From positions 32,031 through 96,030 of IMG/VR virus record IMGVR_UViG_3300037119_005846: 64,000 bases of DNA, one strand, 5' to 3'. The notes under the pieces were generated by a model, which did not search any database, was not told the DNA's origin, and saw only the letters and a program-made list of their open reading frames with translations. Of this stretch, positions 20,875 through 60,429 are shown piece by piece (within the stretch, counting starts at the first letter, position 1; each line of letters starts with the position of its first letter). This stretch comes from a virus. The translations under genes and the position numbers were made by a program.

Positions 20875-21087
20875 ATGAACGACCTGCGCAAGAGCAAGTT
20901 CGAGACCAAGGTAGCAGCGGCTGAGGCCGCCGTTGCCGCCGGCGCCAAGCTGTACGTCGGTGGACGACGTACCGTCGCCACTGCAGAGGAAGAAGGCGAG
21001 ACACGGGTGTATAACCTCGGCGGCGGTGAGGGCGCCTACCAGTGGCGCTGGCTGACCGCGCTGGATGATCCGAGTGGCATTCGGTAA
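20875..21087 (+). CDS. Hypothetical protein
   Basis: 70 aa. Confidence 0.6.
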   Translation: MNDLRKSKFETKVAAAEAAVAAGAKLYVGGRRTVATAEEEGETRVYNLGGGEGAYQWRWLTALDDPSGIR

Positions 21088-21155
21088 CATCACAATGTAT
21101 AATGACATCAGCCAGCCGGCGAACCCGGCTGGCACCAGGACTTCAGACACAGACA
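21075..21155 (+). promoter_or_regulatory. Class I promoter with a 5' hairpin and GACACAGAC leader
   Basis: TGGCAT-17bp-TATAAT (21098), 9-bp stem GCCAGCCGG/CCGGCTGGC at 21111-21133, motif at 21146. Confidence 0.8.
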
Positions 21156-21169
21156 AAGGAACCAACCCA

Positions 21170-28802: not shown

Positions 28803-29228
28803 ATGACCGATCGCCTCGACGAGATCTTCGCCCGGCAGCAGCAGCTCCAGCTGGAGTCGTTCCACATCGACGTCACCGCCCTCGAGGGCCTGCCTCGCGA
28901 GAGGTACGTCGTCCAGAACGCGTTCGCTGTCGTCGCGGAGCTCGTCGAGGCGCTCGACAACATCGACTGGAAGATGTGGACGACCGGCAGCCCGGCGCGG
29001 TTTAAGGACCGGGACAGCTTCGTCCGCGAGATGGTCGACGTCCTGCATTTCATGGTGAACCTCCTTCTGATCGCCGACTGCGATGCCACAGAGCTGTATA
29101 GTCGTTATCTCAGGAAGGCCGAAGTCAACGCGCAGCGTCAGCTGGACGGGTACGACGGCGTCAGCACAAAGAAGGATGGGCGAGCGATGGACGAGCCCGA
29201 GTGGCGTCGAGAGGAGGTGGAACCATGA
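28803..29228 (+). CDS. All-alpha dimeric dUTPase/dCTPase
   Basis: F.RQ..LQ, ELVEA....WK.W, EMVDVLHF, Y..K..VN..RQ..GY. Confidence 0.85.
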   Translation: MTDRLDEIFARQQQLQLESFHIDVTALEGLPRERYVVQNAFAVVAELVEALDNIDWKMWTTGSPARFKDRDSFVREMVDVLHFMVNLLLIADCDATELYSRYLRKAEVNAQRQLDGYDGVSTKKDGRAMDEPEWRREEVEP

Positions 29229-36564: not shown

Positions 36565-36950
36565 CCGATCCGACGCCACCGTGGGAGTACGACGAAGTTG
36601 ATCGTGGCTACGAGACGGCATGTTGGATCGTTCGCGCGAAGAACAAGACTGGGATTCATCCTCGTGCTGGACTCACGAACTGGTTCTCGCGATTCCTTCT
36701 TCGTGGTGAGAAGGGTGTCTTCCAGCATCTCTGTGAGCAGTGGGGTGAGGTCAATTGCTGCGCTCGCTTGTCCCACATCGTGGTTGGCACGCAGTCATCG
36801 AATGCTAAGCACTGGCATCAGCTTCGTCGCGAAGCCGGTGTTGGCTTCTATCACATGCGCGGGCAGCGAAGAGTTCTCAAGACACGTCAATGCGAGGTCT
36901 GTAAAAGAGTCATTAGCCTCGTCAACTTTGAAAGGCACAAGTGTAAGTAA
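36561..36950 (+). CDS. HNH-like homing endonuclease (divergent)
   Basis: CWI, HLC....CC...SH...GT.S.N, lower GC than its neighbours. Confidence 0.6.
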   Translation: MTDPTPPWEYDEVDRGYETACWIVRAKNKTGIHPRAGLTNWFSRFLLRGEKGVFQHLCEQWGEVNCCARLSHIVVGTQSSNAKHWHQLRREAGVGFYHMRGQRRVLKTRQCEVCKRVISLVNFERHKCK

Positions 36951-38317
36951 TGACTTTCTCGGTCGTGGATGTCAACGGGCTCAATGGAAGTCTCAGCTGG
37001 GGAATGAACCAAGCTGGTGGTCGTCTGTTGTACCGAACGGGATACCTCGATCTCGGTCGAGCGATTGTCAGAGCGAACGCGCCACTGTGGGGCAATGATT
37101 GGCACGACTACATCGAACCGGGTGTCAAGGACTGGGAGGCGTGGTACCTAGGTGACCAGATGGCTGATGTCGTCGTAGCAGTCCCACCATGTAGTGGATT
37201 CTCCTTGCTAACTGGCAAGGGCTTGTCGCGCGGGACTGGGAACGCAGTTAACGCTGGTGCAGCTCATCCAATGAACTCGTGCATGTGGGAGTCTGCACGC
37301 TACGCCGCTCGTCACGCGCCGCAAGTGTACGTCTTCGAGTCGGTCACGGGCGCGTACCGTCGCGGCCATGACGTCATGCTCGGTCTCAGATCCGAGATCG
37401 AGCGGATCACCGGCAGGCACTACACGCTCACGCACTGGCTCCACGACTGCGCCGTGCTTGGATCGCCGACGTCTCGTCAGCGGTACATGTTCGTTGCCGT
37501 CCAGGGCGACACGCCGTTCTGCGTGACGCCGGTCGAAGAGTACGCGGTGAAGGAGCTGACTACGACGCGTGACGCGATCGGCGACCTCAGCAGCATGGAC
37601 ACAGGCGTTGGCTTGCGCCCCATCCCGTATCCGACGCTCGCCGGCGTGTTTGGTCGTCGTCTTCATCGCAAAGACAAGATGGTCGACGGTCACTACAACA
37701 ACACCGACCTTCGTCGTGATCGCGGGCTGGCGCCGCCGAAGTGGCATCACCAGGTCGATCAGATCGCCAAGACGCTGCAGGCTCACGGTAGCAATTGGCG
37801 TCAGGGCCAGAGCGAGCCGGACGCGCTGCGATGTCTCTACCAGGCGGCTGGCCTCGACCCGCTGGTCGCGATCGAGGGCGAGAAGCGCGCCGGCAAGTTT
37901 GTGCAGAACGACTTCAACCTCGGTGCGTACTTCGCGTGTCGTCTGATCTGGGACGCGCCGTGCGGCGTCATCTCCGGCTCCGGCGGCGACAGCTTTGTGC
38001 ACCCGGAGCATGACCGCCTGCTGACACACCGCGAGTGCGCCCGAATCCAGGGCTGGCCGGACGAGCTCGTGATCGAGTTCGACTCGAAGAAGTTCGGCAA
38101 GGAGCACCTCGGCGCGGTCTGGGGCAAGGCTGTGACACCGGTCGTGGCACGTCATGCTGCGCAGGAGATCGCAGCATGGCTCGAGCAGCCGGCCATGATC
38201 GGCAAGAACGCGGGCACGCTGATCGGTGATCGCGAGTACTTGATCGATGACCTCGAGCCGTCGCGCTTTCTGCGACGGATGTCGTCAGACCTGCGACGCA
38301 GGACTCTCGCTGCCTGA
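36950..38317 (+). CDS. Divergent DNA (cytosine-C5)-methyltransferase-like protein
   Basis: PPCSGFS (IV), FESV (VI), R.RYMFVA (VIII), RLLT.RECARIQGWP (IX), GKAV (X). Motif I is degenerate. Confidence 0.8.
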   Translation: MTFSVVDVNGLNGSLSWGMNQAGGRLLYRTGYLDLGRAIVRANAPLWGNDWHDYIEPGVKDWEAWYLGDQMADVVVAVPPCSGFSLLTGKGLSRGTGNAVNAGAAHPMNSCMWESARYAARHAPQVYVFESVTGAYRRGHDVMLGLRSEIERITGRHYTLTHWLHDCAVLGSPTSRQRYMFVAVQGDTPFCVTPVEEYAVKELTTTRDAIGDLSSMDTGVGLRPIPYPTLAGVFGRRLHRKDKMVDGHYNNTDLRRDRGLAPPKWHHQVDQIAKTLQAHGSNWRQGQSEPDALRCLYQAAGLDPLVAIEGEKRAGKFVQNDFNLGAYFACRLIWDAPCGVISGSGGDSFVHPEHDRLLTHRECARIQGWPDELVIEFDSKKFGKEHLGAVWGKAVTPVVARHAAQEIAAWLEQPAMIGKNAGTLIGDREYLIDDLEPSRFLRRMSSDLRRRTLAA

Positions 38318-42000: not shown

Positions 42001-44297
42001 AGACCATCCTCAACACGCTCTGGCTCGGCATCCAGATCGTCTGGCCGATCATCACCGACTTCTTCAAGAATCTGCCGGGAAACATTGTCGATCTCGTAGT
42101 CAGCGTCGGCGGATGGCTGCTTGAGACCGGCAAGACCATCCTCAATACGCTCTGGCTGGGAATTCAGATCATCTGGCCGATCATCACAGGCTTCTTCAAG
42201 GACCTTCCCGGAAACATTGTTGACCTGGTCGTGGACGCCGGTGGATGGCTGCTCGAGACCGGTAAGACGATTCTCAACACGCTATGGCTCGGGCTCCAGC
42301 TCATCTGGCCGACGATCAGAGACTTCTTCACGAATCTTCCTGGCGCGATTCTTGGACTCGTAGTCGATGTCGGAGGATGGCTGCTCAACACGGGCAAGAA
42401 CATTCTCAACACGCTGTGGCTTGGAATCCAGGCGATCTGGCCGACCATCACAAACTTCTTCACGGGTCTTCCCGGAGCGATCTTCAGTCTCATCTCCGCG
42501 GCCGCAGGTCTGTACGTAGACGCACTCATCGGCATCGGTTCGAACTTCATCAACTTGATCTGGTTCGGCGTTCAGATGATCTGGCCGACAATCCGAGACT
42601 TCTTCACTGGCCTGCCCGGCAAGATCTTGGATGCCCTGGGGCAGGTCGCGGACTTTAGCGGTGACTTGCTCTCATGGGGCGCTGACTTGATCAGCACGAT
42701 CATCCGCGGCATCACTGACTGGATTCGAGACAACGTTCCAGGCGCTGGATGGCTTCTTGATCTCATGGGCATCGGCGACCTCATGTCTGAGGAGGATAAG
42801 CAGTCAGAGGCTATTCGGTCGACATGGGAGCATGTCGCTGCGGGCTACGTTCTCGCCGGTCAGCAGGCGATGGCAGGCGCGCGCCAGGATCTCGTCGACC
42901 AGGCTGGCGAGGGCAGCGACACGGTAATGAATGCGTTCATCCTGGGTCTTCAGGATGCTGGCACGCAGGCGAACTTTGGGGGCATCGTCCCTTCGACGAT
43001 GATCAACGACATCGTCGGTCAGCTGGGTGACATCGGTGGCCCCGCCGCCGACGCACTGACACTGGAGATCGAAGAGGCACTGAAGGGAGGACTCACCGAC
43101 GCCGAATTCACTGACATCATCACCTCGGCGGAGAAGATCCTTACTGACGCAGGGACGACCGCTGCACATGGGTTTGGGGCTGGACTTTCCAATCCTGACG
43201 CTATCAAGGCTCTGACGCCAGCAATGGAGGCGATGGTCGATACTGCATGGGTGCAGACGCTTGATGGCAGTAGCTTCAAGAAGACTAGCAAGAACACCGC
43301 GACTACCGTCTCTAAGGGGTTAGCCGGCGAGATCACCAAGACCAAGCCGAGTACTTTCCAAAGCTCGGCTGATGCGATGATGACGAACTTGTCAACCGGG
43401 CTGAAGAAGGCTCAAATTTTGCTCAAGGCGTTCGCCGTAGGCCTGATACTCACGATTGTCTCGTGGATCAACCCGACGGTCAAGCTGATGCAGACACTTG
43501 GTCTGAGCATGATGAACGGCTTGCTCCAGGGACTACTCCTGGGCCTGGTCATTGTCCTCGTCGCGGTGAGGACGATCCCGACGAAGATCGTCGCAGCGAT
43601 TGGCAGTGTCGCGACGACACTGCTCGCGTCCGGTCTCAGTCTCATGCGCGGCTTCCTCGCCGGCGTCAACCTCGGCGCGGCTATCGTCGTCAGCGCGCTC
43701 AATGGCATGAGGGCGCGGTTCGTCTCGGCGGTCGGCAATCTGAGCGGCGCGCTCACGAGTGCCGGCTTGGGACTTATGAGCGGCCTGATCTCTGGTGTCC
43801 GCACCGGGATCATCGCGCTTGTCATTCTTCTCGGCAGTCTGCGTCAGACCGTTCTCAACATGTTCGCGGGCTGGGGCAAACTGCTCTATCCAACCGGTGT
43901 GAGCCTCATTCAGGGTCTGATCGCCGGCATCCGGTCGCAGTTCTGGGCGCTGCAACAAGCGGCGAACGAGGCGAGAAGGATCGCTACGATCCCGGCGGTC
44001 ACTGGCGGTCAGCAATTCGCACTAGGTGGCATCGTCACCGGGCCGGTATTTGCGACGATCGGCGAGGCCGGTGCCGAGGCGGTGATCCCGCTGACCAGGC
44101 CACTGCGTGCGCTGTCCTTGCTGCACGCATCGGGTCTCGATGAGCTCGTTCGCCAGGGCTCGCCGACCGGCGGTGACGTCACACTGCTCAACATCGAGCA
44201 CGCCGAGATCAACGACAAGGTAGACGTCGACATGGTCGCGGCTAGACTGACTAGTGCTTATCGCGCAATGATCACAGCTAACGGAGCAGTAGCATGA
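39051..44297 (+). CDS. Tape measure protein
   Basis: 1748 aa, amphipathic helical repeats, C-terminal FALGGIV.GP....GEAG.EAVIPL. Confidence 0.95.
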   Translation: MAAEAIGTAFIVIRAVTTRLAKDIQDGIEKGAKDADVESSGRDMGDRMGTAGGESFGDSFDETSSKRVEESADSPEMKKSQKKFSDRFFGRWGAHFSQGADDVSDTFRERLSVGMERSATDIDVDRAAGTFGSDLGDEVGNDFDASFSRNMQHNFKNRSNDDTFGTGFSGFAQRAGKSLADGVGTTFLDSFVGFGDTVAGALNSIKIPGGSIAILAQLAIPALGGALQSIGALAGSATAALGFLGTAAAGAGIGFLGLGAAIAPAFLLIKGAFGVESDELDAFNGQLDDFKEKWESVGLATQETLLPALSASLEMFEALIPTFESYGSVIGQVVGDIAFGAAGILTSTESQLKLSSILANGSQVIRTLGDAGVDLIAPVLTILEAAMPIAQQLADAIHRVVQSFAEWIDMKSKSGELTALFQKWYDRFKLIMSILGNLGSALADVFGIGADSADGMFKTLDAITEKWAEWTNSDEGQAKLTTFFENARKISGEIFGIIGDIGKRLFGGMFDPKGTDGLLGFFKTIREVWIPALFDFGGMIKDQLGPVVGQVFGVITDLVKTLTENPELAGGIIGVLASNFVLLVAALKGLNAVLNTEFVKKWGPLILKILLFAKIGATLWPIVKKIIKVFQGLEAVLGAIFSPIGLVVAAVAALIAGIVLLYFHFQPFRDFVDRNIIDPLQRLWDRIGGFRGIIDFFKELREAFKTGGFGGAVDFLSEQLGNLLDDIKEFFAGLHIDWGGVWDTLFEGAGDIGEQLSEWLQTGIDWLSKNFPKIARTIGKIAGKVLLAIVGVLTLIVRAIGPAMLTLLKSLPRILQTLVEGAFQFLIGILEGLGLPEGIVNFFEGAFGFITDAFQIITDYVTRHIERGIRIVTDIIGFFKALFSGNFGEAFGKIVDIVKTVIEDVIDQLLTFGKLIWFALKNSFSILKDVGSLLLGFGHDLINGLWQGIQRIWDSTILPFFKNLPGNILSAIVSVGNWLLETGKTILNTLWLGIQIVWPIITDFFKNLPGNIVDLVVSVGGWLLETGKTILNTLWLGIQIIWPIITGFFKDLPGNIVDLVVDAGGWLLETGKTILNTLWLGLQLIWPTIRDFFTNLPGAILGLVVDVGGWLLNTGKNILNTLWLGIQAIWPTITNFFTGLPGAIFSLISAAAGLYVDALIGIGSNFINLIWFGVQMIWPTIRDFFTGLPGKILDALGQVADFSGDLLSWGADLISTIIRGITDWIRDNVPGAGWLLDLMGIGDLMSEEDKQSEAIRSTWEHVAAGYVLAGQQAMAGARQDLVDQAGEGSDTVMNAFILGLQDAGTQANFGGIVPSTMINDIVGQLGDIGGPAADALTLEIEEALKGGLTDAEFTDIITSAEKILTDAGTTAAHGFGAGLSNPDAIKALTPAMEAMVDTAWVQTLDGSSFKKTSKNTATTVSKGLAGEITKTKPSTFQSSADAMMTNLSTGLKKAQILLKAFAVGLILTIVSWINPTVKLMQTLGLSMMNGLLQGLLLGLVIVLVAVRTIPTKIVAAIGSVATTLLASGLSLMRGFLAGVNLGAAIVVSALNGMRARFVSAVGNLSGALTSAGLGLMSGLISGVRTGIIALVILLGSLRQTVLNMFAGWGKLLYPTGVSLIQGLIAGIRSQFWALQQAANEARRIATIPAVTGGQQFALGGIVTGPVFATIGEAGAEAVIPLTRPLRALSLLHASGLDELVRQGSPTGGDVTLLNIEHAEINDKVDVDMVAARLTSAYRAMITANGAVA
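41860..42700 (+). repeat. 132-bp (44-aa) tandem repeats inside the tape measure gene
   Basis: FFxxLPG units start at 41928, 42060, 42192, 42324, 42456 and 42600. Confidence 0.9.
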
Positions 44298-45583
44298 GTA
44301 GCACCTACGGTGAAGGACCGTATGGCGTTGAGCCATACGGCGGTACCGACGAAGATGGTGATGGCTTCGTTGACACATTTGAGGATGTGATCCTCAGTGG
44401 TCGACCAGAGGACTGGCCCGCGCCAGGTGAAATGCACTTTCGCTTGTCAGACGCGACACTAGGCAATCTTGATCTGTCGTGTGACACGGGTTACATCGTG
44501 CGCAGCTATGACTTGGGATTCCCAGAGGTGCGCGAGGTCAGCTATGCCGCGACTCTGGACGACGGCACATTTGATGTCACTGCATTCGTCGGCGCTCGAT
44601 CAGTGTCGCTCGACATCGTTCTTCGTGCCACGGACGTCAGCGGTCACCCTCTTCCATCCGGGCCAAGTGAGACACGAATGCGAGATGACCTGCTGAAGTA
44701 TCTCAGTCCCGCTCTTCGCCCCGTCCTCATGTTCTCGGAGCATGGTGACGATCGCGTCCGCGCTATTGTGCTGCGCGGGTCAGATGCGCCGATCAGCGTG
44801 TCGCAGCCGCAGTTCAACAGTGTCAGCGTGTCGTGGCGTGCTCCCCGAGGGATGATCGAGAACACGGATGTGCACCGCGCGTACTTCACCTTCGATGAGC
44901 TGCTGAGTGCGGAATACACAATTTTGACCGAGAACAAGGGAACAGTCCCCGCCCACTGGCAGCTTCAGATCTCTGGCGATCTCGAGAGCCCCCACATCAG
45001 CATTGGTGATCTGCACCTCTGGCTCAACTATCACATCGAGCCAGCCGGCGTTATCACGATCGACTCGCGCACGAGGACAGTTCGCATCGGCAACGTTCCT
45101 GTGGGCTATCGATACCTAGACGACAAGAGTGACTGGTTCCGTATCCCGCCGGGCTTTCAAGAGATTCACTTCTCTCATGACGCCGTGCCACGACTTGGTC
45201 TTCCCTACGCCTACTGGCAGCCTGATGCTTCGTCTGTGTCAGCGTCACACACCGCATGGGCCGCGATCGCGATAAGCAACGTGACCGCGACGCACTTGCC
45301 GAGCGCGTCGTCGTTTGGGAGTCTCGCCGCGCTCAAGGCGAACCCAACATCTGGCGATGGTCACTACGGCGGTCCGGCGTTTGGGCCTGGCAATTATGTC
45401 GTTCTTGGCGACACTTCGCAGGCGTGGTACAACAGTGCGATCTGGATAGCCGGCTACATGCCGTACGACAATCCTTCACCGATCGGCGCGCCGCCGTGGA
45501 TCTGGACGCCCTCGGTCGATGACGGTACCGGCGAGCCGGTCGTTGGCGAAGTGACACTTACTTATCGCGAGCTCTACTTGTGA
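44294..45583 (+). CDS. Distal tail (Dit-like) protein with a C-terminal insertion
   Basis: Follows the TMP, with DLGFPEVREV, GAR.V, N.G.VP, W..IPPG motifs. Confidence 0.75.
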   Translation: MSSTYGEGPYGVEPYGGTDEDGDGFVDTFEDVILSGRPEDWPAPGEMHFRLSDATLGNLDLSCDTGYIVRSYDLGFPEVREVSYAATLDDGTFDVTAFVGARSVSLDIVLRATDVSGHPLPSGPSETRMRDDLLKYLSPALRPVLMFSEHGDDRVRAIVLRGSDAPISVSQPQFNSVSVSWRAPRGMIENTDVHRAYFTFDELLSAEYTILTENKGTVPAHWQLQISGDLESPHISIGDLHLWLNYHIEPAGVITIDSRTRTVRIGNVPVGYRYLDDKSDWFRIPPGFQEIHFSHDAVPRLGLPYAYWQPDASSVSASHTAWAAIAISNVTATHLPSASSFGSLAALKANPTSGDGHYGGPAFGPGNYVVLGDTSQAWYNSAIWIAGYMPYDNPSPIGAPPWIWTPSVDDGTGEPVVGEVTLTYRELYL

Positions 45584-47774: not shown

Positions 47775-48260
47775 GTGGCTGAGTTCATCGTGGTCCAGGA
47801 CGGGTCACGCAAGATCACTTTCGAGGGCGATCTCATCGCCTCGGTGTCGAGCGTAGGACCGTCCAAGCCGAGGTGGTCGGAGTACCGCCTGTACAAGACG
47901 ATCTCGGGAACGTACGTCCTCGAGAAGGTGGGGCGGTCGATCGTCGTCCACACCCCCGGATGCCCGGAGATCATCGACACCCTCGATCGGTTCCAGGATA
48001 AGAACCCGGGTAAGGACCCGTCTGACGGCTTCTGGCTGTGCGAGAGCTGTATGACTAGTCGCTACGACATCACGGCGCTTCTCGTCGAGCACGACAGGCA
48101 CTGGGTCACGATCACCGAGGAGCCAGCCCACGTCGTTGACGCGCTCTACCGCAAGCGGGACGGCGCTCGCCACCTGCCGCGGCTCAGCCTGGAGCTGCTC
48201 GACCAGGCGGCCCGCGTCGATGACAATCTGGCCGATGCCTTCCGCGTCGAACGGATCTGA
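47775..48260 (+). CDS. Hypothetical protein
   Basis: AAGGAG RBS, RW.E..LYKT..G.YVL..VG.S.V.H. Confidence 0.75.
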   Translation: MAEFIVVQDGSRKITFEGDLIASVSSVGPSKPRWSEYRLYKTISGTYVLEKVGRSIVVHTPGCPEIIDTLDRFQDKNPGKDPSDGFWLCESCMTSRYDITALLVEHDRHWVTITEEPAHVVDALYRKRDGARHLPRLSLELLDQAARVDDNLADAFRVERI

Positions 48261-48262
48261 TC

Positions 48263-49129
48263 ATGTGGATCATTCTCGAGGGAGTGGACGGCAGTGGCAA
48301 ATCTACACTCTGCGACATCATTGCCGAGTCGATCCCCGACATCCCTGACGTCATACGCACGCACCTGGGTGCGCCCAAGTCTGCCGCCAGCGCACTGATC
48401 GAGTGCACTGACGACGAGCCGTTCGGCACGTACCGACCTGGCGGCGGTGCTCACATCATCAGCGACCGTCACCACTGGGGCTGCCCGGTGTACGGACCTG
48501 TCCTGCGGCCGGAGCGTGACACGGACGGCTACGGCGACTTCAACAAGGCCGGCTGGCGATACTGTGAGCTGTTCATCGCGTCCCGGGGTGGTCGGACGAT
48601 CTACGTCGACGTCAGCGCCGAGACCGCGCAGGAGCGCATACGGCATCGAGGCGACGCGAACTACGACGTTGAGACGCTGATCGCCATCACGCCGGAGCTG
48701 CTCGACCGCTACCACTGGTTGCTGACCGAGGCGCCGACGCTGGGGCTCCACATCGTCGAGCCGAGCATGGCTGAGCTGACGGTCCTTGCGCGCGACATCA
48801 TCGAGCTCGGCTCGATCCACGAGGACGAGGCCGCGCCGCTGGCGCACTACCCGGACTACATCGGTAAGCCGCAGCCCAAGAAGCTGCTCGTCTGTGAGCC
48901 GACCAAGGATGCGCGGCTAGACATTCTTGCTAGCTTCAGTGACGATGAGTGGGCCGATGTCGGCTTTTGCTCGAGCGCGCACACGCGTGACTCGCTGCAC
49001 GAGCTAGCGTCGACGCTGGATTACCCGCAGATCGTCGGTGTTGGTCGTCTGCCGAGCGACGCGGACGCATTTGTGTTCGACATGGCTGGTAGGGTTGAGT
49101 CAGCCCGCGACGGCGCAGTGGCTATCTGA
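48263..49129 (+). CDS. Thymidylate-kinase-like dNMP kinase with a C-terminal extension
   Basis: IILEGVDGSGKST, DRHH, R.RGD. Confidence 0.85.
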   Translation: MWIILEGVDGSGKSTLCDIIAESIPDIPDVIRTHLGAPKSAASALIECTDDEPFGTYRPGGGAHIISDRHHWGCPVYGPVLRPERDTDGYGDFNKAGWRYCELFIASRGGRTIYVDVSAETAQERIRHRGDANYDVETLIAITPELLDRYHWLLTEAPTLGLHIVEPSMAELTVLARDIIELGSIHEDEAAPLAHYPDYIGKPQPKKLLVCEPTKDARLDILASFSDDEWADVGFCSSAHTRDSLHELASTLDYPQIVGVGRLPSDADAFVFDMAGRVESARDGAVAI

Positions 49130-49147
49130 CACAGACAGGAGACATAG

Positions 49148-50041
49148 ATGCATCACCGCAAGGTGAAGGATCTTCGACGCGAGTACGCGGACATCGTGTA
49201 CGAGGTGCTCACGCTCGGCGACAAGACCGCTCCGCGTGGCATTCCGACGCACGAGATCCTCAACTACGTGATGACGTTCGACGACGCGCGCAACTGCACG
49301 TTCCCGTCCGGCATCGGCCGGCTGGTCAGCCCGCGAGTACTGGCTGCCGAGGGGATGCAGTGGCTTGGCGGGGTCAGCGACCTGGCGCAGCTGGAGTCGG
49401 TCAGCGCCAAGTTCCTCGAGTACTCGGACGACGGCACGCGGCTGTACGGCGCCTACGGGCCGCGATCACACAAGGGTCTCTGGCGCGCGATCAGGCTTCT
49501 GTACAATGACCCGGACACTCGTCAGGCCGTCGTGTCAATCTGGAGCCATGACGAGCTCCATTCGACGCGTGACCTCCCGTGCACAGTCAGCTGGTCGTTC
49601 ATCATCCGCCGCGGTCGGCTGCACATGACGACGTTCATGCGCTCGAATGACGTCTGGACCGGCCTCGCGTACGACGTCCCGATCATGGCACGCATCCAGA
49701 CGGCGATGGCATGGGCGCTTGGCGTCGACGTCGGCTCGTACACGCATCACGCTCAGTCGATGCACATCTACGAGAGTGACCTCGCCGGGCTGGACTCGCT
49801 GCAGTCGGTGATCCTGGAAGTCGATGAGCCGCCATTCTTCGACGACATCGGCAATGTGCACCATCTGCCGTCGCAGCGCTGGAAGTACGTTGTTGAGTGG
49901 GCCATCGACGCCGCTCAGGGCGCGTCGCATCTGCCGCCGGCGTTCGACTGGTACTCACGTCAACTTGCGGCGACCGAGCACCACCCGTACTTCTGCGACC
50001 GCTGCCGGTACTACACACCTGCCGTCTGCGAGTGCGAGTGA
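49148..50041 (+). CDS. Thymidylate-synthase-family enzyme, Asp-type (dCMP-modifying)
   Basis: YGPR, TRQAV, DLPC(145)T, MRSND...G..YD(176), SMHIYE. Confidence 0.85.
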   Translation: MHHRKVKDLRREYADIVYEVLTLGDKTAPRGIPTHEILNYVMTFDDARNCTFPSGIGRLVSPRVLAAEGMQWLGGVSDLAQLESVSAKFLEYSDDGTRLYGAYGPRSHKGLWRAIRLLYNDPDTRQAVVSIWSHDELHSTRDLPCTVSWSFIIRRGRLHMTTFMRSNDVWTGLAYDVPIMARIQTAMAWALGVDVGSYTHHAQSMHIYESDLAGLDSLQSVILEVDEPPFFDDIGNVHHLPSQRWKYVVEWAIDAAQGASHLPPAFDWYSRQLAATEHHPYFCDRCRYYTPAVCECE

Positions 50042-50496
50042 GGCCGACGTGGGACGCGACGTGGATGGCGATGGCCGACAGCGTCGGGCAACGAAGCCTC
50101 TGCAGCCGCGCTAAGATCGGTTGTGTCATCGTCACTCGCGACAATCGCGTCGAGTCGGCGACATATAACGGCCCCGCACCGGCGTTCGATCACCACGAGC
50201 TCGAGTGCGACCACTGGTGCGAGCGGATGATGACCGGCGAGAAGGGCGTCAACTATGACACATGCCCGTCGACGCATGCGGAAGCTTCCGCGATCGCGCG
50301 AAGCGACTGGTCTCGACTTCAAGGCGCGACGTTGTACGTCAACGGATCATGCTGCCAGAATTGTTCGAAGCTGATCGCTCAGACAGGCATCAAGCGAGTA
50401 GTGCATCGCGTCACCGAGAGCATGGCGTATCGCCATCCCGAGCTGGTCGAGCAGTACTTGCGGAGCATGCTCATCGAGGTGAGACGTGCCACTTGA
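50038..50496 (+). CDS. dCMP deaminase
   Basis: RPTWD, RS.C, YNG.., HAE, C..C.K.I.Q.GI, GTGA-coupled to the TS homologue. Confidence 0.9.
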   Translation: MRPTWDATWMAMADSVGQRSLCSRAKIGCVIVTRDNRVESATYNGPAPAFDHHELECDHWCERMMTGEKGVNYDTCPSTHAEASAIARSDWSRLQGATLYVNGSCCQNCSKLIAQTGIKRVVHRVTESMAYRHPELVEQYLRSMLIEVRRAT

Positions 50497-52261
50497 CCCG
50501 ATGCAGGCGGTCAACTTCGTCGAGTCTGCCGACGACGTCGAGCGACTGTGGCGCTGGATGTCCGCTGAACCGCTGATCGCGACCGACACCGAGACGACCG
50601 GCTTCGGCCTGTACGACGATGACTTCAGCGTTCGGCTGATCCAGTTCGGCTCGCCCACTGAAGCGTGGGTGGTCGACTTCCAGCGCTGGCGCGGCCTGGT
50701 CGAGGACATCTTCATCCGCTACCAGGGTGACTGGGTGATGCACAACGCTCGCTTCGACGTTACGGGTCTGGCCCAGGAAGGGATCGCGGTCCCATGGCAT
50801 CGCCTTCACGACACCATGGTCCAGATGCGCCTGGCCCGCCCGACCGAGTCGGCGGCACTGAAGAACGCCGCCGACAAATACATCAGCCCGATCAGCAGCG
50901 ACGCTCAGAAGGTTCTTCGCGAGGCGTTCCGCCGCCAGGGATGGAACTGGGCGACAGTGCCGATCGACTTCCCGCCGTACCGCTTCTATGCAGCCCTGGA
51001 CCCGATCTTGACAGCCCGGCTGTATCACACCCCGGTCTGCCGCGAGGGCCGCGAGAGTGACGTCTACGCCCTCGAGATGCAAACCAAGGCGGTGTGCTCA
51101 CGCATGGAGCAGAACGGGCTCCGGATCGACCGCGACTTCTGCCGCCGCAATGCCGAGCGCCTGCGCGAGCACGCCGACGCGCTGAAGGCCGAGATGGACA
51201 GTCGTCACGGCATCAGCATCACCAGCGCCATGCAGCTGAGTCACTGGTTCGCCAGTCGGCCGGACGCGCTCGAGTGGATGACCAAGGAGACTCACAAGGG
51301 CAAGCTCAGCGTCGACAAGGAAGTGCTCCACGTGCTGGTCGGCCTCGGCGGCGAGGTCGGCGAGATGGCGTCTGCCGTGCTCGCGGTCCGCCGCGACGAG
51401 AAGATCGCCGGCTCGTACCTGGAGAACTTCTTGCGGATGTCCGACGGTGATGACTTGCTCCACCCGCAGATCGAGACGGTCGCCGCGCGCACCGGTCGCA
51501 TGTCGGTGAAAGAGCCCGGTCTTCAGACGCTGCCGAAGCCGACGGTTGAGAGTGATTACAGAATCGTCCGTGAGGGGATCGTGCCGTTCACCGACGACGA
51601 GGTGATCATCAGCTGCGACCTCGACCAAGTGGAGTTGCGCCTGGCCGCGATCATCTCCAAGGACCAGGGCCTGATCGACGCGTTCGCCGCGGCAGATGCC
51701 GGCGAAGACGACTTCTTCACACTCCTGGCTCAGGGTGTCTACCGCGACCCAACGATCACCAAGGATAACAAGCGTCGAGCCCGGATAAAGACATTTTCTT
51801 ACGCGTCACTTTACGGCGCGTCGGTGCGCAAGATGGCGATCAGCGCCGGCGTCCCTGTCGCGGAGATGCGCGACATCCGTGACGACATGGCGGCGCGGTT
51901 CCCGGGTTTCTTCAGCATGGGGCTCGAGGCGCAGCACCAGCTTCGTGAGAACGGCGGCTACATCAAGACACTGTTCGGCCGCAAGTTGCCGGTCGACGAG
52001 TCGAAAGAGTATGTGTCGACAAATTATTTGATACAGGGCAGCGCTGCCGACCTGCTCAAGCGGTCACTCGTCCTGATGGCGCAGGCCGGCCTCGAGGAGT
52101 ACATGCTCGTGCCCGTCCACGACGAGATCGTGCTGTCCGTGCCGCACGCCGACGCCGACGAGGTCGGCCGCGAGGTCGAGCGCGCGATGACGTCGACGGA
52201 GTTCAGCGTGCCGATCACCGCGTCGTCGTCGACCGGCGACAACTGGGCAGCGGCGAAATAG
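50486..52261 (+). CDS. polA: Family A DNA polymerase with 3'-5' exonuclease
   Basis: DTETTG, HNARFD, YAALD, RTGRMS, D..QVELR, K...YA.LYGA, IQGSAAD, VHDE. Confidence 0.95.
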   Translation: MPLDPMQAVNFVESADDVERLWRWMSAEPLIATDTETTGFGLYDDDFSVRLIQFGSPTEAWVVDFQRWRGLVEDIFIRYQGDWVMHNARFDVTGLAQEGIAVPWHRLHDTMVQMRLARPTESAALKNAADKYISPISSDAQKVLREAFRRQGWNWATVPIDFPPYRFYAALDPILTARLYHTPVCREGRESDVYALEMQTKAVCSRMEQNGLRIDRDFCRRNAERLREHADALKAEMDSRHGISITSAMQLSHWFASRPDALEWMTKETHKGKLSVDKEVLHVLVGLGGEVGEMASAVLAVRRDEKIAGSYLENFLRMSDGDDLLHPQIETVAARTGRMSVKEPGLQTLPKPTVESDYRIVREGIVPFTDDEVIISCDLDQVELRLAAIISKDQGLIDAFAAADAGEDDFFTLLAQGVYRDPTITKDNKRRARIKTFSYASLYGASVRKMAISAGVPVAEMRDIRDDMAARFPGFFSMGLEAQHQLRENGGYIKTLFGRKLPVDESKEYVSTNYLIQGSAADLLKRSLVLMAQAGLEEYMLVPVHDEIVLSVPHADADEVGREVERAMTSTEFSVPITASSSTGDNWAAAK

Positions 52262-54693: not shown

Positions 54694-55304
54694 CGCAGCT
54701 ACATCACATTCACTACGTTCATGTAGCACTCGAAGCATATGGACCACTACCTCATCCATGCCACTTCTGCGAGCTTCCAGTCGTCCACTTGACGACGCGG
54801 CACCCACTAGGTGGTGTTGTTCATCATCTTGACGCGAACCGGGCTAATGACGATCCGTCGAATCTCGTGTTCGCGCACACCGCCTGTCACTCACGTCATC
54901 ATCAGACCGGGCGCAAATTGACCAAGGCGGCGAAAGCCAAGATCGGCGAGGCAGTCCGTGAGTGGAACAGCAAGCTCGAGAATCAGGAACGAAAGTCTCG
55001 TGGCATGAAGACAGCGCACGCAGACGGTAAGTTCACCACGATGTATGAGAAGGTTCGTCTGCGGTGGGCGGATCCAGAGATGCGACAGGCACAGTCAGAC
55101 CGACTTCGAATCTACGAGCCACGGGAGCTACTCACGAAGGAGCAGCGCGCTGAGATCTACCGAGACAATGGTGCACGCTACAGCGCGCATCTTCGATCTG
55201 GCATGTATGACGTTGACTGTCCGAACGGCTGCGGCAAGCGATGCGCTCCTGGTCCGATGGCCATACACGTCCGCGGCGGCCGGTGTCCTCTGAAGGCGAA
55301 ATGA
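54690..55304 (+). CDS. HNH endonuclease with NUMOD3-like helices
   Basis: C..C...VHHLD.NR.N....NL...H..CH. Confidence 0.8.
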   Translation: MTQLHHIHYVHVALEAYGPLPHPCHFCELPVVHLTTRHPLGGVVHHLDANRANDDPSNLVFAHTACHSRHHQTGRKLTKAAKAKIGEAVREWNSKLENQERKSRGMKTAHADGKFTTMYEKVRLRWADPEMRQAQSDRLRIYEPRELLTKEQRAEIYRDNGARYSAHLRSGMYDVDCPNGCGKRCAPGPMAIHVRGGRCPLKAK

Positions 55305-55327
55305 GCGACGAAGGTAGTATCCCGCCC

Positions 55328-58300
55328 ATGACTGACGTTGACGTCAATGCCGTCTCCGAACTGTACGCTACTTGGGAAAGAGAGCTAGCCCAGCTCGACC
55401 ACGAGCCTGATCCCGCGCTGATCGCGTCACTGGAGAGCCAGGCGCTCGACATGGGCGTCGACCTGTTCGACGTCTTCACGACGCTGACCGCGGCGTTCGA
55501 TCCGAGCCTCCATCCGCGCGGCAAGGACGGCAAGTTCATCGAGGTCGGCGGACTGATCCGCTTGTTCAATTTCTCGATCCAGGGCAAAGACGGCAAGCAG
55601 CACGACTTCAGCGGCCGTCGCGGCAAGGTCCTCGGCATCGACAAGGACCCGAAGAGCGACAAGCTGCCGCCGAACATCCGCGTCGGGCTGTACGACACGG
55701 ATGACATGAGCGGCCCGCCGAAGGCTGTCGTCACTGTCAAGCCGAACCACATCGAGAAGGCACCGGAGAAGGGTCGTCTGCCCAACGCGGAGTCGTATAA
55801 GGCGCCTGACGTCAAGATGCCGGGCGGCACGAACGATGTCATTCCGATGACGCCGACACCGCCGAAGTCCGAGAACCAGAAGCTGAACGACTCCGGCATG
55901 AAGTGGAACAGCAACCTTCAGCTCTACGAAACGCCGAATGGGACGAGCGGGTCGCAGATGAGCATCGACAATGTTGACAACAAGCCTCGCTACAGTGTGT
56001 TCCCGCCCGGTATATCTCGCTGGTCGACAGATCAGAGCGGCGTGCGACGGTACGACAACATCGATGACGCGTTAGCGAGCATCAACGAGCCGGCTACACC
56101 AGGTGCGAGTGCGCCGCCCCTGACGCCAGATGACCTCAACACGGTACCGGCGCCCGCGAGCTTCACACCGTCATCGAACATCACCAATGACTTCGTCGAG
56201 TACCCGGTCGGCTCCGGTGACGTGTACATGCTGACGCCGTTCAACGGCGGCGAGCGCTACCAGCTGACGCCGCAGAATCCCACGGCCGGCGAGCCGATCC
56301 AGAACCCGTACCTTGACGAGCTTAATCCGGACGAAGTCGCGAAGATCGACACTAGCGGTAGCGGTGGTGGCGGCGTTCCCAAGAACACGCCACCCTCTGG
56401 CTCGCAGTACGAGGAAGCTTCAGTACGCGCCGAGGGACTTCGCAACACCGGCATCTTCGATGACTGGTACGGCCGCGAGGCCGAGCTCGCCGACGGCAAG
56501 CTGTGGCTGTCGAAGGAGAAGTTCAACGCCGACGTCGACAAGGGCAAGTATGGCTCGGTCTCGGACGGTCAGCGCGAGGCACTTCGCCAGGCTTTGATGA
56601 ACCAGGCGGCTCAGGTCAATGCCGTGAATGAGGCCGACCTGAGCACTCAGAGCGCCGACTTCATGAACACTCAGCGCGCCAAGGCCGTGCCGTTCGACCA
56701 GGCCAAGAAGAACTCGATCGTGATGATCAACGAGAACGGCGTCGAGACTCCGTTCAAGGTTGAGGGCAAGCGCAACGGCAAGCTGTACGGCCATACGATG
56801 ACTCCTGATACCGCCGGCGAGGTGTATTACGACGACGGCCTGTCACCGAACGAGGCGTGGGGCGCGAGCGACATCGGCTTCGGTAGCGATGAAGAGACAG
56901 CCGACGACCTCAAGGATTACGGTCCGTACGCATTCAAGGATGGTGGCGGAAACGTTCTTCCGCCGATATCGCCCGAGATGCAAGCTAAGGCCGACAAGTT
57001 GATGGGTCCCAAGCCTGCCGCTGCGCCGAGCGCACCTGGTGGCGGCGGCGGCGGCCGTGAATGGCCGCCTCTTCCGTCCAGCCCCGACGATGACGATGCT
57101 ATCGCTTTGATGGACGAGGCGATTGATGCATTTATCACCGATTGGGCGCGTGAGCACAACGGTGAAGAAGTCGACAATATGGGCGCATCTGATATCGAGG
57201 ATGCGTTATTTGACGGTGCTATCGAATCCGGGCTCGACGCTGAGGCTCTTGACAGCATGACGGCATGGGACCCGCATGAGTACTACGACCGCTGGCGAAA
57301 CATCACAAATGACGGCACAGAAGTTCCTGGTGAAGGTCATGTCCCCGTAAGTGAACGTGAGCCTCTTGCGCCTGTACCTTCTGCTCCCGTCGGCGTGTCG
57401 ACGCCGTCCGCCAAGAGCGGCCCGGCGCAGCCGGGCGGCGGCAAGAGAACACCTGATGAGGTGCAGAAGATCGCAGACTTCATCGGAGCATCACCTGCCA
57501 CGACCGCGGATCTGCAAGAGTTCTACGGCACGAACGACCCTCAACGTCGTGCACAGCTTGGCAATAAGCTCAGCAAGCAAGTTGGCCCAGGAGCATGGGC
57601 CGACATCAACGATCCTGAGTATGTCGACAGCGTCGTTCTCAAGAACAAGCCCATCAAGTTCGTCGGGACGCCAGATGCCGCATCTGATCCCGTCGAGTCG
57701 CGCGGCGGCTTCGACCTCTGGGACAACGGCGCTGAAGGCTGGGCCGTCTACAGCTCTGACGGCGACCTCGTCGTCGCCGACACGACCGAGGCCAACGCTC
57801 GCTCCGTGTTCAACACGTCCGCGGGCAAGGATGGTGGCGGCACGCCGGCGTACGCACCGCTCGACAAGGCTCGTGTCGACGCGATCATTGATCACATCGG
57901 TGCTAAGGGAAAGATCGCGGCAGATCTCAGAGAGTTCTTCAGTACGACTGATCCGAAGCGCAAGGCGGCACTCGGTACCAGCCTCGACCAGCGAGTCGGT
58001 CCGGGAATCTGGAGCGATATCAATGATCCGGACTACGTCGACAACACCATCTTGAAAGGCAAGGGCACATCATTCGCCGACGTCGGCAATGCCGTCGCGA
58101 AGGGCGGGACCGGCGGAACGTTCAAGCCCGAGAACTACAACAAGATGAAGGCCGGCGACGCGGACACGTATCTGGCCGGCCTTACTCCCGAGAACCGCGC
58201 GGCGGCGATGGACTTCACCAAGAAGGACGTCCCGGCTCGCGCGAAGAAGTTCGACGACGCGAGCCTGCGAGCGACGTATGAAGCCGCGACCGATCCCGAC

Positions 58301-58945
58301 GTCAAGCGCGACCTGAAGATCGAGCTCGCGAGACGTGGCCTGCTTACCGAGGTGGACACGGTCGGGGGAGGTGAGGGCGCGGCACCGGCGGCGGAGGCGC
58401 CGGCCGTCCCTTTATCTGAGGCGCCGGCCGCGCCGGCGCCAGCGGCTCCTGCAGCCCCCGCGATGCGCAGCAGGGCGGCGATCCAGACCGAGCTCGACGA
58501 CGTCACGGCTCAGCTCGACAAGAAGTGGGGCGATCAGTTCGGCAACATGGGTCCAGGCGCGCAGAACATGCGCAACAATCTCATGAACAGGCGCAAGGCA
58601 CTCTACGCCGAACGCGACGCTGTCGACGCCAAGGAGACCGACGACCTTCGAACGTCACTGAAGACAGTGCAGCCGCACACCTATATCAAGCCACAGCACG
58701 ACTACGTTCGTCAGCAGTGGGAGATGTACTTCGCCGAGGAAGACAGCATGTACTCGCCCACTGACACGACGATCACGGCGCTTCTGCGTGACGCGATCAA
58801 GAAGCATCCGAACGATCCATACGTGACGATCGGTCCGCCGTCCGAGGCCGAGGTCCAGTTCCCGATGGCCGACGCTCGCATCCTCGCGTACACCAACCCG
58901 ACGATGGAGTACAGCCCACCGCCGGGACTGCCGGCGATAGTGTGA
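55328..58945 (+). CDS. Large multidomain protein with N-terminal HPR tag (putative head cargo)
   Basis: LTAAFDPSLHPRGKDGKFIE and an internal duplicated domain. Start moved to the ATG 8 nt after GGTAGTAT. Confidence 0.8.
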   Translation: MTDVDVNAVSELYATWERELAQLDHEPDPALIASLESQALDMGVDLFDVFTTLTAAFDPSLHPRGKDGKFIEVGGLIRLFNFSIQGKDGKQHDFSGRRGKVLGIDKDPKSDKLPPNIRVGLYDTDDMSGPPKAVVTVKPNHIEKAPEKGRLPNAESYKAPDVKMPGGTNDVIPMTPTPPKSENQKLNDSGMKWNSNLQLYETPNGTSGSQMSIDNVDNKPRYSVFPPGISRWSTDQSGVRRYDNIDDALASINEPATPGASAPPLTPDDLNTVPAPASFTPSSNITNDFVEYPVGSGDVYMLTPFNGGERYQLTPQNPTAGEPIQNPYLDELNPDEVAKIDTSGSGGGGVPKNTPPSGSQYEEASVRAEGLRNTGIFDDWYGREAELADGKLWLSKEKFNADVDKGKYGSVSDGQREALRQALMNQAAQVNAVNEADLSTQSADFMNTQRAKAVPFDQAKKNSIVMINENGVETPFKVEGKRNGKLYGHTMTPDTAGEVYYDDGLSPNEAWGASDIGFGSDEETADDLKDYGPYAFKDGGGNVLPPISPEMQAKADKLMGPKPAAAPSAPGGGGGGREWPPLPSSPDDDDAIALMDEAIDAFITDWAREHNGEEVDNMGASDIEDALFDGAIESGLDAEALDSMTAWDPHEYYDRWRNITNDGTEVPGEGHVPVSEREPLAPVPSAPVGVSTPSAKSGPAQPGGGKRTPDEVQKIADFIGASPATTADLQEFYGTNDPQRRAQLGNKLSKQVGPGAWADINDPEYVDSVVLKNKPIKFVGTPDAASDPVESRGGFDLWDNGAEGWAVYSSDGDLVVADTTEANARSVFNTSAGKDGGGTPAYAPLDKARVDAIIDHIGAKGKIAADLREFFSTTDPKRKAALGTSLDQRVGPGIWSDINDPDYVDNTILKGKGTSFADVGNAVAKGGTGGTFKPENYNKMKAGDADTYLAGLTPENRAAAMDFTKKDVPARAKKFDDASLRATYEAATDPDVKRDLKIELARRGLLTEVDTVGGGEGAAPAAEAPAVPLSEAPAAPAPAAPAAPAMRSRAAIQTELDDVTAQLDKKWGDQFGNMGPGAQNMRNNLMNRRKALYAERDAVDAKETDDLRTSLKTVQPHTYIKPQHDYVRQQWEMYFAEEDSMYSPTDTTITALLRDAIKKHPNDPYVTIGPPSEAEVQFPMADARILAYTNPTMEYSPPPGLPAIV

Positions 58946-58949
58946 GGTC

Positions 58950-60413
58950 ATGAGCGACAGCTTCGTCGTAGTACGACGCACTCGAGAGTACAAGCCGCTG
59001 GTTGCGGCCTTCAATCCGGACCTACATCCTCGCGGGCACGACGGCAAGTTCATCGAGAAGTTCGGTTTCATCAAGATCGTTGGTGGCTACGACAAGGGTA
59101 ACCATGGCCAGGTTGTAGACATCACTCCGGACAAGAGCAACCCCGGTCGGCCGGTCATCCACTACCGCCAGACTGATAATCGCGGCAACCAGATCGGCCC
59201 TCGTCTCGGAGCTACGCCGGATCAAGTCGAGTCGATTGACGAGAAGGCGCGTCTCAGCGGTCCACCCAGCGCGCGCCGTACTGAGATGGACGTAGACTTA
59301 GGGCCGGACACGAACCAGTCACCGTATGGGCAGCTGAACTTCGAAGCACCAGGGCAGGTGCCGAGATTCCCGGTGCCGCAGCCGCAGACGACGAGTCATG
59401 ACGCCGAGATTCCCGGCATTGGTAGCGTCGACGAGTACCTAGCCGCGAACCCGCAGCAGCCTGATGAGCCATTCTTCGAGTGGCAGTCTAGACTATGCGA
59501 TGGCCTTCCGCAGAAGTCGAGGCACGCGCTGACGTTCGAGACGAGAGAGCGCTACCCCAAGGTCGACTACATCGCCGAGGGCTCCGCGCGCTGGCGGGCC
59601 GAGCACGATCTTCCCGAGCCGAAAGTCGACCTGACCGAGGTGCCGGCGCCGCTGGAGAAGGCTGACGCCGTCGCTCGAGCGTTCGAAACCGCGGCTGATC
59701 AGAGCGACGACCCGCGAGTGCAGGCGGCATTCGCCGAGTTCAAGCGGCAGAACGACGAGATGTGGGACTTCGCGACTAGGCCCGAGTCAGAGGGCGGCCT
59801 CGGGATCAAGGTCGACTTCTGGACCAACCTGGACGAGACACAGTTCGGCGTAGGTCCGTATGCGGACGCGACCGCGCAGGCTGAAGACTTGCGCGCCAAC
59901 CATCACATCTACCTCGAGCACGGACTCGGCGGCGATCACGGCGCGACGATGACCGACGACGAGTACGACAGGTTCCGCGCGGTTCACGATATCTTCGGCC
60001 ATGCCGGCATCGGCGGCGGGTTCGACCGTCACGGCGAGTACCAGGCGTACCTCGCTCACTCGTCGATGTACGAGGGCGACGGCCGTCGTGCGATGGCGAG
60101 CGAGTACCACGGCGTCAACACCGCGGTCTGGGCGGGAGCGCCCGGCAGCCCGGGCACGGGCAAGTCGATCTTGCTTCCGGAGGAGCTGATCCCGAACCCG
60201 TTCGGGCCGACCGGCGACATCATCGCGGCGTCCGCGGTCCAGGTCCCGACGCCGGCGCAGCAGAAGGCGCTCGGCATCGACGCCGCTCACGCGGAATCGC
60301 TGGTCTACCTCGCGATGCAAGCGAACATCGAGCCGCCGTTCGCTCAGTGGTATGACGACCTGCCGCGACACCACTCGACGCCGCCAGAGGGAACAGAGCC
60401 CTACGCGGCCTAG
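58950..60413 (+). CDS. HPR-tag protein with an FRAVHDxxGH metallo-domain
   Basis: LVAAFNPDLHPRGHDGKFIE, FRAVHDIFGH...GE..A...H..MY. Confidence 0.8.
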   Translation: MSDSFVVVRRTREYKPLVAAFNPDLHPRGHDGKFIEKFGFIKIVGGYDKGNHGQVVDITPDKSNPGRPVIHYRQTDNRGNQIGPRLGATPDQVESIDEKARLSGPPSARRTEMDVDLGPDTNQSPYGQLNFEAPGQVPRFPVPQPQTTSHDAEIPGIGSVDEYLAANPQQPDEPFFEWQSRLCDGLPQKSRHALTFETRERYPKVDYIAEGSARWRAEHDLPEPKVDLTEVPAPLEKADAVARAFETAADQSDDPRVQAAFAEFKRQNDEMWDFATRPESEGGLGIKVDFWTNLDETQFGVGPYADATAQAEDLRANHHIYLEHGLGGDHGATMTDDEYDRFRAVHDIFGHAGIGGGFDRHGEYQAYLAHSSMYEGDGRRAMASEYHGVNTAVWAGAPGSPGTGKSILLPEELIPNPFGPTGDIIAASAVQVPTPAQQKALGIDAAHAESLVYLAMQANIEPPFAQWYDDLPRHHSTPPEGTEPYAA

Positions 60414-60429
60414 GCGGTAGTATCCGACT

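Follow-up and report, generated by a model that had tools for sequence, protein, structure and literature searches.

A thymidylate synthase homologue predicted to be a dCMP 5-hydroxymethylase, and a putative cytosine modification pathway, in a siphovirus-type genome from soil

The DNA analysed here (the window) comprises the last 64 kb of the 96,030-bp virus record IMGVR_UViG_3300037119_005846, an IMG/VR-type metagenome assembly that forms a single contig, is about 95% complete as judged by CheckV, and was found in soil-metagenome contigs only in a search of sequencing runs. Its genes lie almost entirely on the + strand, and one of them, at 49148–50041 (+), codes for a 297-residue protein of the thymidylate synthase (TS) fold (PF00303). 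This gene is part of a block in which a conserved open reading frame (ORF), a nucleotide kinase, the TS homologue, a deoxycytidine monophosphate (dCMP) deaminase and a DNA polymerase I (PolA) are followed by genes for a RuvC-like protein, an SNF2 helicase, a PD-(D/E)XK protein and an AAA_24 protein, and the same block recurs in the Gordonia phages GodonK and Forza, in the lake phage DSL-LC01, and in the IMG/VR loci L005–L009. The diagnostic residues of the TS homologue lead us to predict that it is a dCMP 5-hydroxymethylase (5-hydroxymethyl-dCMP [5hmdCMP] synthase, EC 2.1.2.8), and, judging by the genes around it, the phage DNA probably holds modified cytosine.

The 49148–50041 protein matches the Pfam Thymidylat_synt profile with an E-value of 1.8e-20, over profile positions 2–218 of 266 only, and the match ends short of the C-terminal tail of ThyA. 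Its best solved relative is MilA, a CMP 5-hydroxymethylase (PDB 5b6d, E 3.7e-18), and against the best NCBIfam thymidylate synthase equivalog it scores 61.9 bits where the cut-off is 327. We have therefore rejected an identification as ThyA (EC 2.1.1.45), given this low score, the unmatched tail, and the presence of aspartates (Asp176 and Asp142) where ThyA has asparagine and leucine.

Aligning the protein with T4 gp42, SPO1 gp29, E. coli ThyA and RB69 gp48, whose sequences came from public records, recovers the published T4/E. coli equivalences D145/L143, V85/W83, Y96/Y94 and D171/D169, which supports the register of the alignment. The counterparts of Cys145 are E. coli Cys146 and T4 gp42 Cys148, and those of Asp176, with which RSNDVWTGLAYD ends, are E. 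coli Asn177, T4 gp42 Asp179 and SPO1 gp29 Asn194; the spacing from the cysteine to the specificity residue is 31 residues in the query, E. coli ThyA, T4 gp42 and SPO1 gp29 alike. A preliminary description of this DNA had pointed to this pair of residues, their spacing and their match to T4 Cys148/Asp179, and the alignments bear it out. Because Cys145 is invariant among 262 aligned sequences and 257 of 258 database homologues carry Asp176, the aspartate is a property of the family and not a chance substitution. Two further positions are informative: Asp142, three residues before the catalytic cysteine, occupies the position of E. coli Leu143, shares a column with T4 D145 and is kept in 255 of the 262 sequences, while Asp168, at the position of E. 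coli Asp169, is invariant in all 262, with N186 of RB69 gp48 in the same column. Ser166 and Arg125 stand at the positions of E. coli S167 and R126' and are the residues of the deoxy type, and the additional catalytic residues R30, E68, Y103, R165, H206 and Y208 are also present.

Reading the positions of E. coli L143, D169 and N177 as a triad, E. coli ThyA (product dTMP) has L-D-N, SPO1 gp29 (product 5-hydroxymethyl-dUMP) has D-D-N, RB69 gp48 (product 5-hydroxy-dCMP) has E-N-D, and T4 gp42 (product 5hmdCMP) has D-D-D; the query, with D142-D168-D176, shares the T4 arrangement and its predicted product is thus also 5hmdCMP. The D-D-D triad is found in all 58 homologues sampled for phylogenetic comparison, and in a FastTree reconstruction of 65 sequences the query lies within a large clade composed entirely of D-D-D members, nearer to SPO1 gp29 than to T4 gp42, with which it shares 16% identity.

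The functional meaning of these positions has been established in other members of the fold. An aspartate at the position of E. coli Asn177 specifies cytosine (PMC5175136, PMC6400193); an acidic residue at the Leu143 position goes with hydroxymethylation and not methyl transfer (PMC6400193, PMC13326640); an asparagine at the Asp169 position marks the flavin-dependent 5-hydroxy-dCMP synthases, all tested examples of which have it (PMC13326640); and Ser167 together with Arg126' marks deoxy substrates, MilA having alanine and lysine instead (PMC5175136). In T4 gp42 the D145N substitution yields an inactive enzyme. The residues of the TS homologue accordingly support a cytosine-directed enzyme, with a T4-style pre-replicative C5 modification as the best reading. 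The preliminary description had left the product as hydroxymethyl, hydroxy or methyl; the diagnostic residues favour hydroxymethyl, with Asp142 arguing against methyl and Asp168 against 5-hydroxy, and the pair Ser166 and Arg125 suggests that the substrate is a deoxyribonucleotide.

Comparison with individual characterised enzymes is in keeping with this. SPO1 gp29, a dUMP hydroxymethylase, is the nearest characterised phage relative by sequence (30–33% identity, with up to 96% query coverage in SPO1-like phages) and resembles the query in having an aspartate at the Leu143 position as well as Asp169; however, it has an asparagine where the query has Asp176, and because of this difference we expect the query to act on dCMP and not on dUMP. 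MilA of Streptomyces rimofaciens likewise has an aspartate at both diagnostic positions, but its Ala176 and Lys133 favour a ribonucleotide, whereas Ser166 and Arg125 of the query are as in deoxy-specific enzymes. RB69 gp48 and DLP3 gp80 (PMC13326640) share with the query the TS fold, the cytosine-specifying aspartate and an acidic residue at the Leu143 position, and they too are paired with a kinase and with DNA glycosyltransferases, for which this genome has a candidate; they differ in using flavin and O2 and in having an asparagine at the position of E. coli Asp169. A 5-hydroxy-dCMP synthase of the RB69 gp48 type was considered for the query and is disfavoured, since Asp168 is retained where that type has asparagine.

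Two other features of the gene may be noted. The C-terminal tail of the protein (residues 283–297, window 49994–50041) contains a cysteine triad, C-x-x-C-R-Y-x(6-9)-C, which is kept in approximately 22 of the 25 closest homologues, whereas the more distant homologues and T4 gp42 lack it; a part in metal binding, redox chemistry or regulation is conceivable. Ahead of the ATG, at 49128–49147 (+), there is a GACACAGAC motif followed by an AGGAGA ribosome-binding site. Exact copies of GACACAGAC occur at 15 sites in the window, 14 of them on the + strand, as compared with 1.2 expected from shuffles; examples are at 3437, 27437, 33261, 49128 and 52687, and one copy lies 12 bases 5' of the start codon of the TS homologue. 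It is probably a phage promoter or some other start-associated element.

Directly upstream of the TS homologue is a gene at 48263–49129 (+) for a 288-residue deoxynucleoside monophosphate kinase of the thymidylate kinase (TMK) fold, with a P-loop match to PF02223 and phrog_761. The AlphaFold2 (AF2) model has a predicted local distance difference test (pLDDT) score of 93.5, and residues 1–195 adopt the TMK fold, matching the S. aureus TMK with a Foldseek E-value of 5.5e-6 and giving VIA Z scores of 17.1 to 2axp and 15.2 to the dTMP kinase 2plr. Residues 196–288 (window 48848–49129) form an extra alpha/beta domain that is modelled with confidence. DSL-LC01 and the IMG/VR relatives retain this domain, whereas no alignment to it is seen in GodonK or Forza; its likeness to the HGTP anticodon-binding domain is one of fold only, and an Atlas feature search with this domain returned no usable match. 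A kinase of the T4 gp1 type (PF21448) is excluded, since T4 gp1 itself matches that profile at E 3e-107 and the query has no match, and a BLASTP comparison with gp1 is also negative. The gene upstream of the kinase (47775–48260, +) encodes a 161-residue protein without a Pfam or PHROG family; homologues likewise lie immediately before the kinase gene in GodonK, Forza, DSL-LC01 and loci L006–L009, and it may be part of the same nucleotide module.

Downstream lies a dCMP deaminase gene at 50065–50496 (+; PF00383, E 2.6e-17; phrog_174, E 2e-35). Its reading frame is open from 49897, the ATG at 50065 is the likely start, and this lies 24 bases past the stop codon of the TS homologue; their counterparts in DSL-LC01 have 4 bases in common. 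GodonK, Forza, DSL-LC01 and eight of ten IMG/VR loci likewise have a deaminase gene adjacent to the TS homologue or close to it. It is followed at 50486–52261 (+) by a family A DNA polymerase I (PF00476, E 2.5e-61) with a 3'-5' exonuclease domain (PF01612, E 2.1e-14). Further away, at 28803–29228 (+), is an all-alpha NTP pyrophosphatase of the family that contains dimeric dUTPases and the T4 gp56 dCTPase (PF08761 dUTPase_2; 45.3 bits against a cut-off of 22.9). T4 gp56 matches the same Pfam family, the two proteins share a C-terminal motif (36% identity over 42 residues, pairwise E 2e-8), and the pyrophosphatase is 39% identical to GodonK gp112. The preliminary description had listed a kinase, a dimeric dCTP/dUTPase and a phage polymerase as companions of the TS homologue, and all three are found, the kinase being TMK-like and the pyrophosphatase having dCTP or dUTP as its possible substrate. 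A search of the genome for ThyX or a second ThyA found none, and the same is true of five relatives, so that one cannot argue for a specialised role of the TS homologue from the presence of a conventional thymidylate synthase as well. In the MetaGPA study, the co-occurrence of TS, dCMP deaminase and MazG-like domains was specific to contigs that an experiment had enriched for modified cytosine (PMC8670742).

A second group of genes could act on the DNA after its synthesis. The protein encoded at 35494–36564 (+) is glycosyltransferase-like, with a probable GT-B fold, and is a candidate DNA glycosyltransferase on the grounds of structural matches and co-occurrence. It has no match in Pfam (even at an E-value of 10), NCBIfam, PHROG functions or PDB sequences. 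The AF2 model, built from a five-sequence alignment, has a pLDDT of 60 and is poor at residues 211–299, and the structural neighbours of this low-confidence model are almost all GT-B proteins (Foldseek E about 1e-3, VIA Z 10–12, Atlas TM 0.70); in language-model features it scores 0.97 to ESM Atlas clusters that carry PF09198. The preliminary description had called it similar to the T4 beta-glucosyltransferase (BGT) and proposed later glycosylation of the DNA. Membership of the BGT family is rejected here, since BLASTP and hhalign comparisons with T4 BGT are negative and there is no PF09198 match in the genome; what stands of that proposal is the probable GT-B fold, the feature likeness to PF09198 clusters and the co-occurrence. 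A glycosyltransferase role is likely, as far as the model allows, and DNA as its acceptor, suggested by context, is unproven, since the protein has no sequence match to T4 BGT.

Homologues of the candidate glycosyltransferase are present in GodonK, Forza, DSL-LC01 and L006, and in the relatives they adjoin the pyrophosphatase, within the replication module. The DSL-LC01 homologue is annotated as a glycosyltransferase and is followed by a UDP-galactopyranose mutase (UGM; L021:1724–2821), a paralogue and a MazG-like pyrophosphatase; GodonK has gp118 and gp116 beside two annotated glycosyltransferases (locus L031, gp114–gp118), a dUTPase and a methyltransferase. The relatives thus have two paralogues plus additional glycosyltransferases or a UGM, whereas this genome has a single copy, and the sugar, if placed on DNA, may differ between phages. 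A role in capsid glycosylation has been proposed for the glycosyltransferases of actinophages (PMC11256854), and the paper describing DSL-LC01 interprets the neighbouring UGM as an auxiliary gene for the cell wall (PMC10611076).

Shortly downstream, at 36950–38317 (+), is a gene for a C5-cytosine DNA methyltransferase-like protein (PF00145, E 1.6e-17, profile positions 62–322 only) in which the PPC, ESV, RxR and GKAV motifs are present; it is 33% identical to the DSL-LC01 methyltransferase and 32% identical to GodonK gp110. The homologues (36950–38317, L021:5775–7019 and L032:3757–5031) have an invariant N-G-L at motif I, after which the sequence is GxNG here, GxAA in DSL-LC01 and a near-canonical GxGG in GodonK. 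The interpretation of this as a degenerate motif of an enzyme independent of S-adenosylmethionine is not accepted, because motif I varies among the orthologues and the GodonK form is near-canonical. A TET/JBP dioxygenase, which would offer an alternative route by way of C5 methylation, is absent from the genome.

When the 4-kb module was compared by megablast with 50,697 phage records there was no match, and the nearest relatives are 33–41% identical at the protein level. The genes of GodonK (gp192), Phendrix, Forza (gp179) and the Actinomycetia phage DSL-LC01 that are annotated in GenBank as ordinary thymidylate synthases are 33–38% identical to the query, and those of GodonK, Forza and DSL-LC01, when aligned, have the same D-D-D triad. 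These three phages also share with this genome the order kinase–TS homologue–deaminase–PolA, the glycosyltransferase-like homologues and the pyrophosphatase, and GodonK and DSL-LC01 share the methyltransferase-like homologue in addition. No other TS was found when the GodonK, Forza and DSL-LC01 genomes were searched, and the one paper found to name GodonK does not discuss these genes.

The type of virion is suggested by an SPP1-type Dit domain encoded at 44294–45583, preceded by a 1748-residue ORF of the size and position of a tape measure gene, which together indicate a siphovirus-type tail. A Ku70/Ku80 beta-barrel homologue (PF02735, E 3.9e-19) is encoded at 21065–21979; comparable genes are known from some mycobacteriophages. 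The Ku homologue, the GC content of approximately 0.63 and the Gordonia phages among the nearest cultured relatives make an actinobacterial host plausible for this phage from a soil metagenome, and with it the actinobacterial siphovirus of the preliminary description. At the end of the window, 55241–63999, there are three consecutive very large ORFs (1234, 487 and more than 1190 residues) without a Pfam family.

Marked avoidance of palindromes, which could have been an argument against protected DNA, was looked for in the genome and not found. The median observed/expected (O/E) ratio of 4-mer palindromes is 1.00 as compared with 1.01 for other 4-mers, with none below 0.6 and GATC at 1.01; for 6-mers the medians are 0.94 and 1.00 respectively, with low values for GGATCC (0.34) and AAGCTT (0.40) alone. 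Broad protection of the DNA would agree with these figures, which are no proof of it.

The interpretation that we favour, and think fairly probable, is that the 49148–50041 gene encodes a folate-dependent dCMP 5-hydroxymethylase, of a lineage separate from T4 gp42, and that this enzyme takes part in a pathway leading to modified DNA. In such a pathway the gp56-family pyrophosphatase would return dCTP, and perhaps dUTP, to the monophosphate; Cys145 would attack C6 of dCMP while Asp176 orients and protonates the cytosine; methylenetetrahydrofolate would donate its methylene group, and Asp142 would admit or activate a water, so that 5-hydroxymethyl-dCMP and not 5-methyl-dCMP is formed. The adjacent TMK-fold kinase would then produce the diphosphate and a host nucleoside diphosphate kinase the triphosphate, for the phage polymerase I to build into DNA as 5-hydroxymethyl-dCTP, and the closely spaced dCMP deaminase would, like T4 Cd, turn some of the dCMP into dUMP, on which the host thymidylate synthase could draw. 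Once in DNA, the hydroxymethyl group may receive a sugar from the GT-B-fold protein. The enzyme assignment is supported by the fold, by the catalytic and diagnostic residues, and by a gene order that related phages conserve; from these we infer the activities, and we regard incorporation into DNA as plausible and both glycosylation and complete replacement of cytosine as doubtful.

The T4 pathway to 5-hydroxymethylcytosine (hmC) consists of gp42, the gp1 kinase, the gp56 dCTPase/dUTPase, the Cd deaminase and the alpha- and beta-glucosyltransferases, and the likeness to it includes the D-D-D triad, the cysteine, the Ser/Arg deoxy pair and the His/Tyr residues of the TS-fold enzyme, as well as the gp56-family pyrophosphatase, the dCMP deaminase, the phage polymerase and the candidate GT-B-fold transferase. 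There are also differences. The query is 16% identical to gp42, is placed in a separate clade and has an 80-residue C-terminal extension bearing the cysteine triad; the kinase has the TMK fold plus an extra domain and does not match PF21448; there is no phage thymidylate synthase; the glycosyltransferase candidate lacks PF09198; and there is an extra C5-methyltransferase-like gene in a high-GC genome with a siphovirus-type tail.

Several of these points weigh against a hydroxymethylase pathway to modified DNA. The residue rules come from distant relatives, as the low identity to T4 gp42 illustrates, and to our knowledge no enzyme of this lineage has been assayed; Tyr103 aligns with T4 Y96, but the position of T4 Ser94 is Gly101, and the N-terminal half aligns poorly with T4. 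The kinase, on its modelled fold, appears to be thymidylate-kinase-like rather than gp1-like, and the pyrophosphatase could be a plain dUTPase. The lack of palindrome avoidance would also be expected if the hosts have few restriction systems, and the phage is known from soil metagenome assemblies alone, with its modified DNA predicted from genes. With a substituent at C5 of every cytosine, nothing would be left for the product of the conserved methyltransferase-like gene to act on; an active methyltransferase needs unmodified cytosines, which argues either against complete replacement or for some other role of the protein.

This last consideration bears on the possibility that 5hmdCMP is made while a fraction or none of the virion cytosines are modified, with the glycosyltransferase serving virion proteins or the host cell wall. 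The near-canonical GxGG of GodonK gp110 would imply unmodified cytosine targets, no HMM of a DNA glycosyltransferase matches the glycosyltransferase candidate, and the capsid and cell-wall roles proposed for the actinophage enzymes and the DSL-LC01 UGM fit this arrangement; yet a dedicated kinase, pyrophosphatase and polymerase beside a hydroxymethylase would be pointless without incorporation, the glycosyltransferase homologues of the relatives stand beside the pyrophosphatase in the replication module, the language-model features resemble those of PF09198 clusters, and palindromes are not avoided. We judge it unlikely. It is improbable, in our estimate, that 5-hydroxymethyl-dCMP is instead deaminated to 5-hydroxymethyl-dUMP and phosphorylated by the TMK-like kinase, with 5-hydroxymethyluracil (hmU), possibly glycosylated, replacing thymine and not cytosine. 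Such a route would account for a deaminase gene placed directly after the TS homologue (24 bases past its stop codon or overlapping it, with the 4-base overlap in DSL-LC01), for the TMK fold of the kinase, for the position of the clade nearer the SPO1 dUMP hydroxymethylase than T4 gp42, and for the lack in all six related genomes of a thymidylate synthase able to use dUMP; dCMP deaminases, moreover, can accept 5-substituted dCMP. However, we know of no phage precedent for hmU arising by deamination of 5hmdCMP, the known hmU phages hydroxymethylate dUMP directly with an enzyme of the Asn type such as SPO1 gp29, T4 too has a dCMP deaminase beside its hmC pathway, and no dTTP-excluding enzyme was recognised. 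The co-occurrence of TS and dCMP deaminase on cytosine-modified contigs (PMC8670742) also speaks for a cytosine product.

A different C5 product from dCMP, either 5-methyl-dCMP as in XP12 or 5-hydroxy-dCMP as in RB69, seems to us very improbable. Asp176 by itself specifies no more than cytosine, the serine of the Ser-x-Tyr pair that holds the water in T4 is replaced by glycine, and the conserved C-terminal cysteine triad is not seen in T4 gp42; against this, Asp142 replaces the water-excluding Leu143 of the methyl-transferring enzymes, Asp168 is retained where every tested 5-hydroxy-dCMP synthase has asparagine, and the family shows little or no variation at either position. Hydroxymethylation of dCMP is therefore the product that we retain for the 49148–50041 enzyme. 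A more ambitious extension of this, which we put forward tentatively and think doubtful as a whole, is that in an actinobacteriophage group comprising the Godonkavirus and Forzavirus phages of Gordonia, DSL-LC01 and many soil and freshwater uncultivated viral genomes, including this one, cytosine is replaced by glycosylated 5-hydroxymethylcytosine, by means of a hydroxymethylase lineage distinct from that of T4, a TMK-derived kinase and a DNA glycosyltransferase that has no Pfam family, with galactofuranose as the sugar in some of the phages and a methyltransferase-like enzyme perhaps acting on the modified base.

Modified cytosine in DNA is a well-known means of evading restriction, and we found no report of hydroxymethylcytosine in actinobacteriophages in the searchable literature. 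If the prediction is correct, the annotation as thymidylate synthase would be wrong in GodonK, Phendrix, Forza and DSL-LC01; GodonK, Phendrix and Forza are in culture, which makes the question directly accessible to nucleoside mass spectrometry. DNA modified in this way affects sensitivity to restriction and CRISPR systems, the ease with which the phages can be sequenced and cloned, and what they can offer as tools or in therapy. As the chemistry is already known, the gain would be one of distribution and annotation and not of principle: T4-style hydroxymethylcytosine DNA would be found also in siphoviruses of high-GC Gram-positive hosts.

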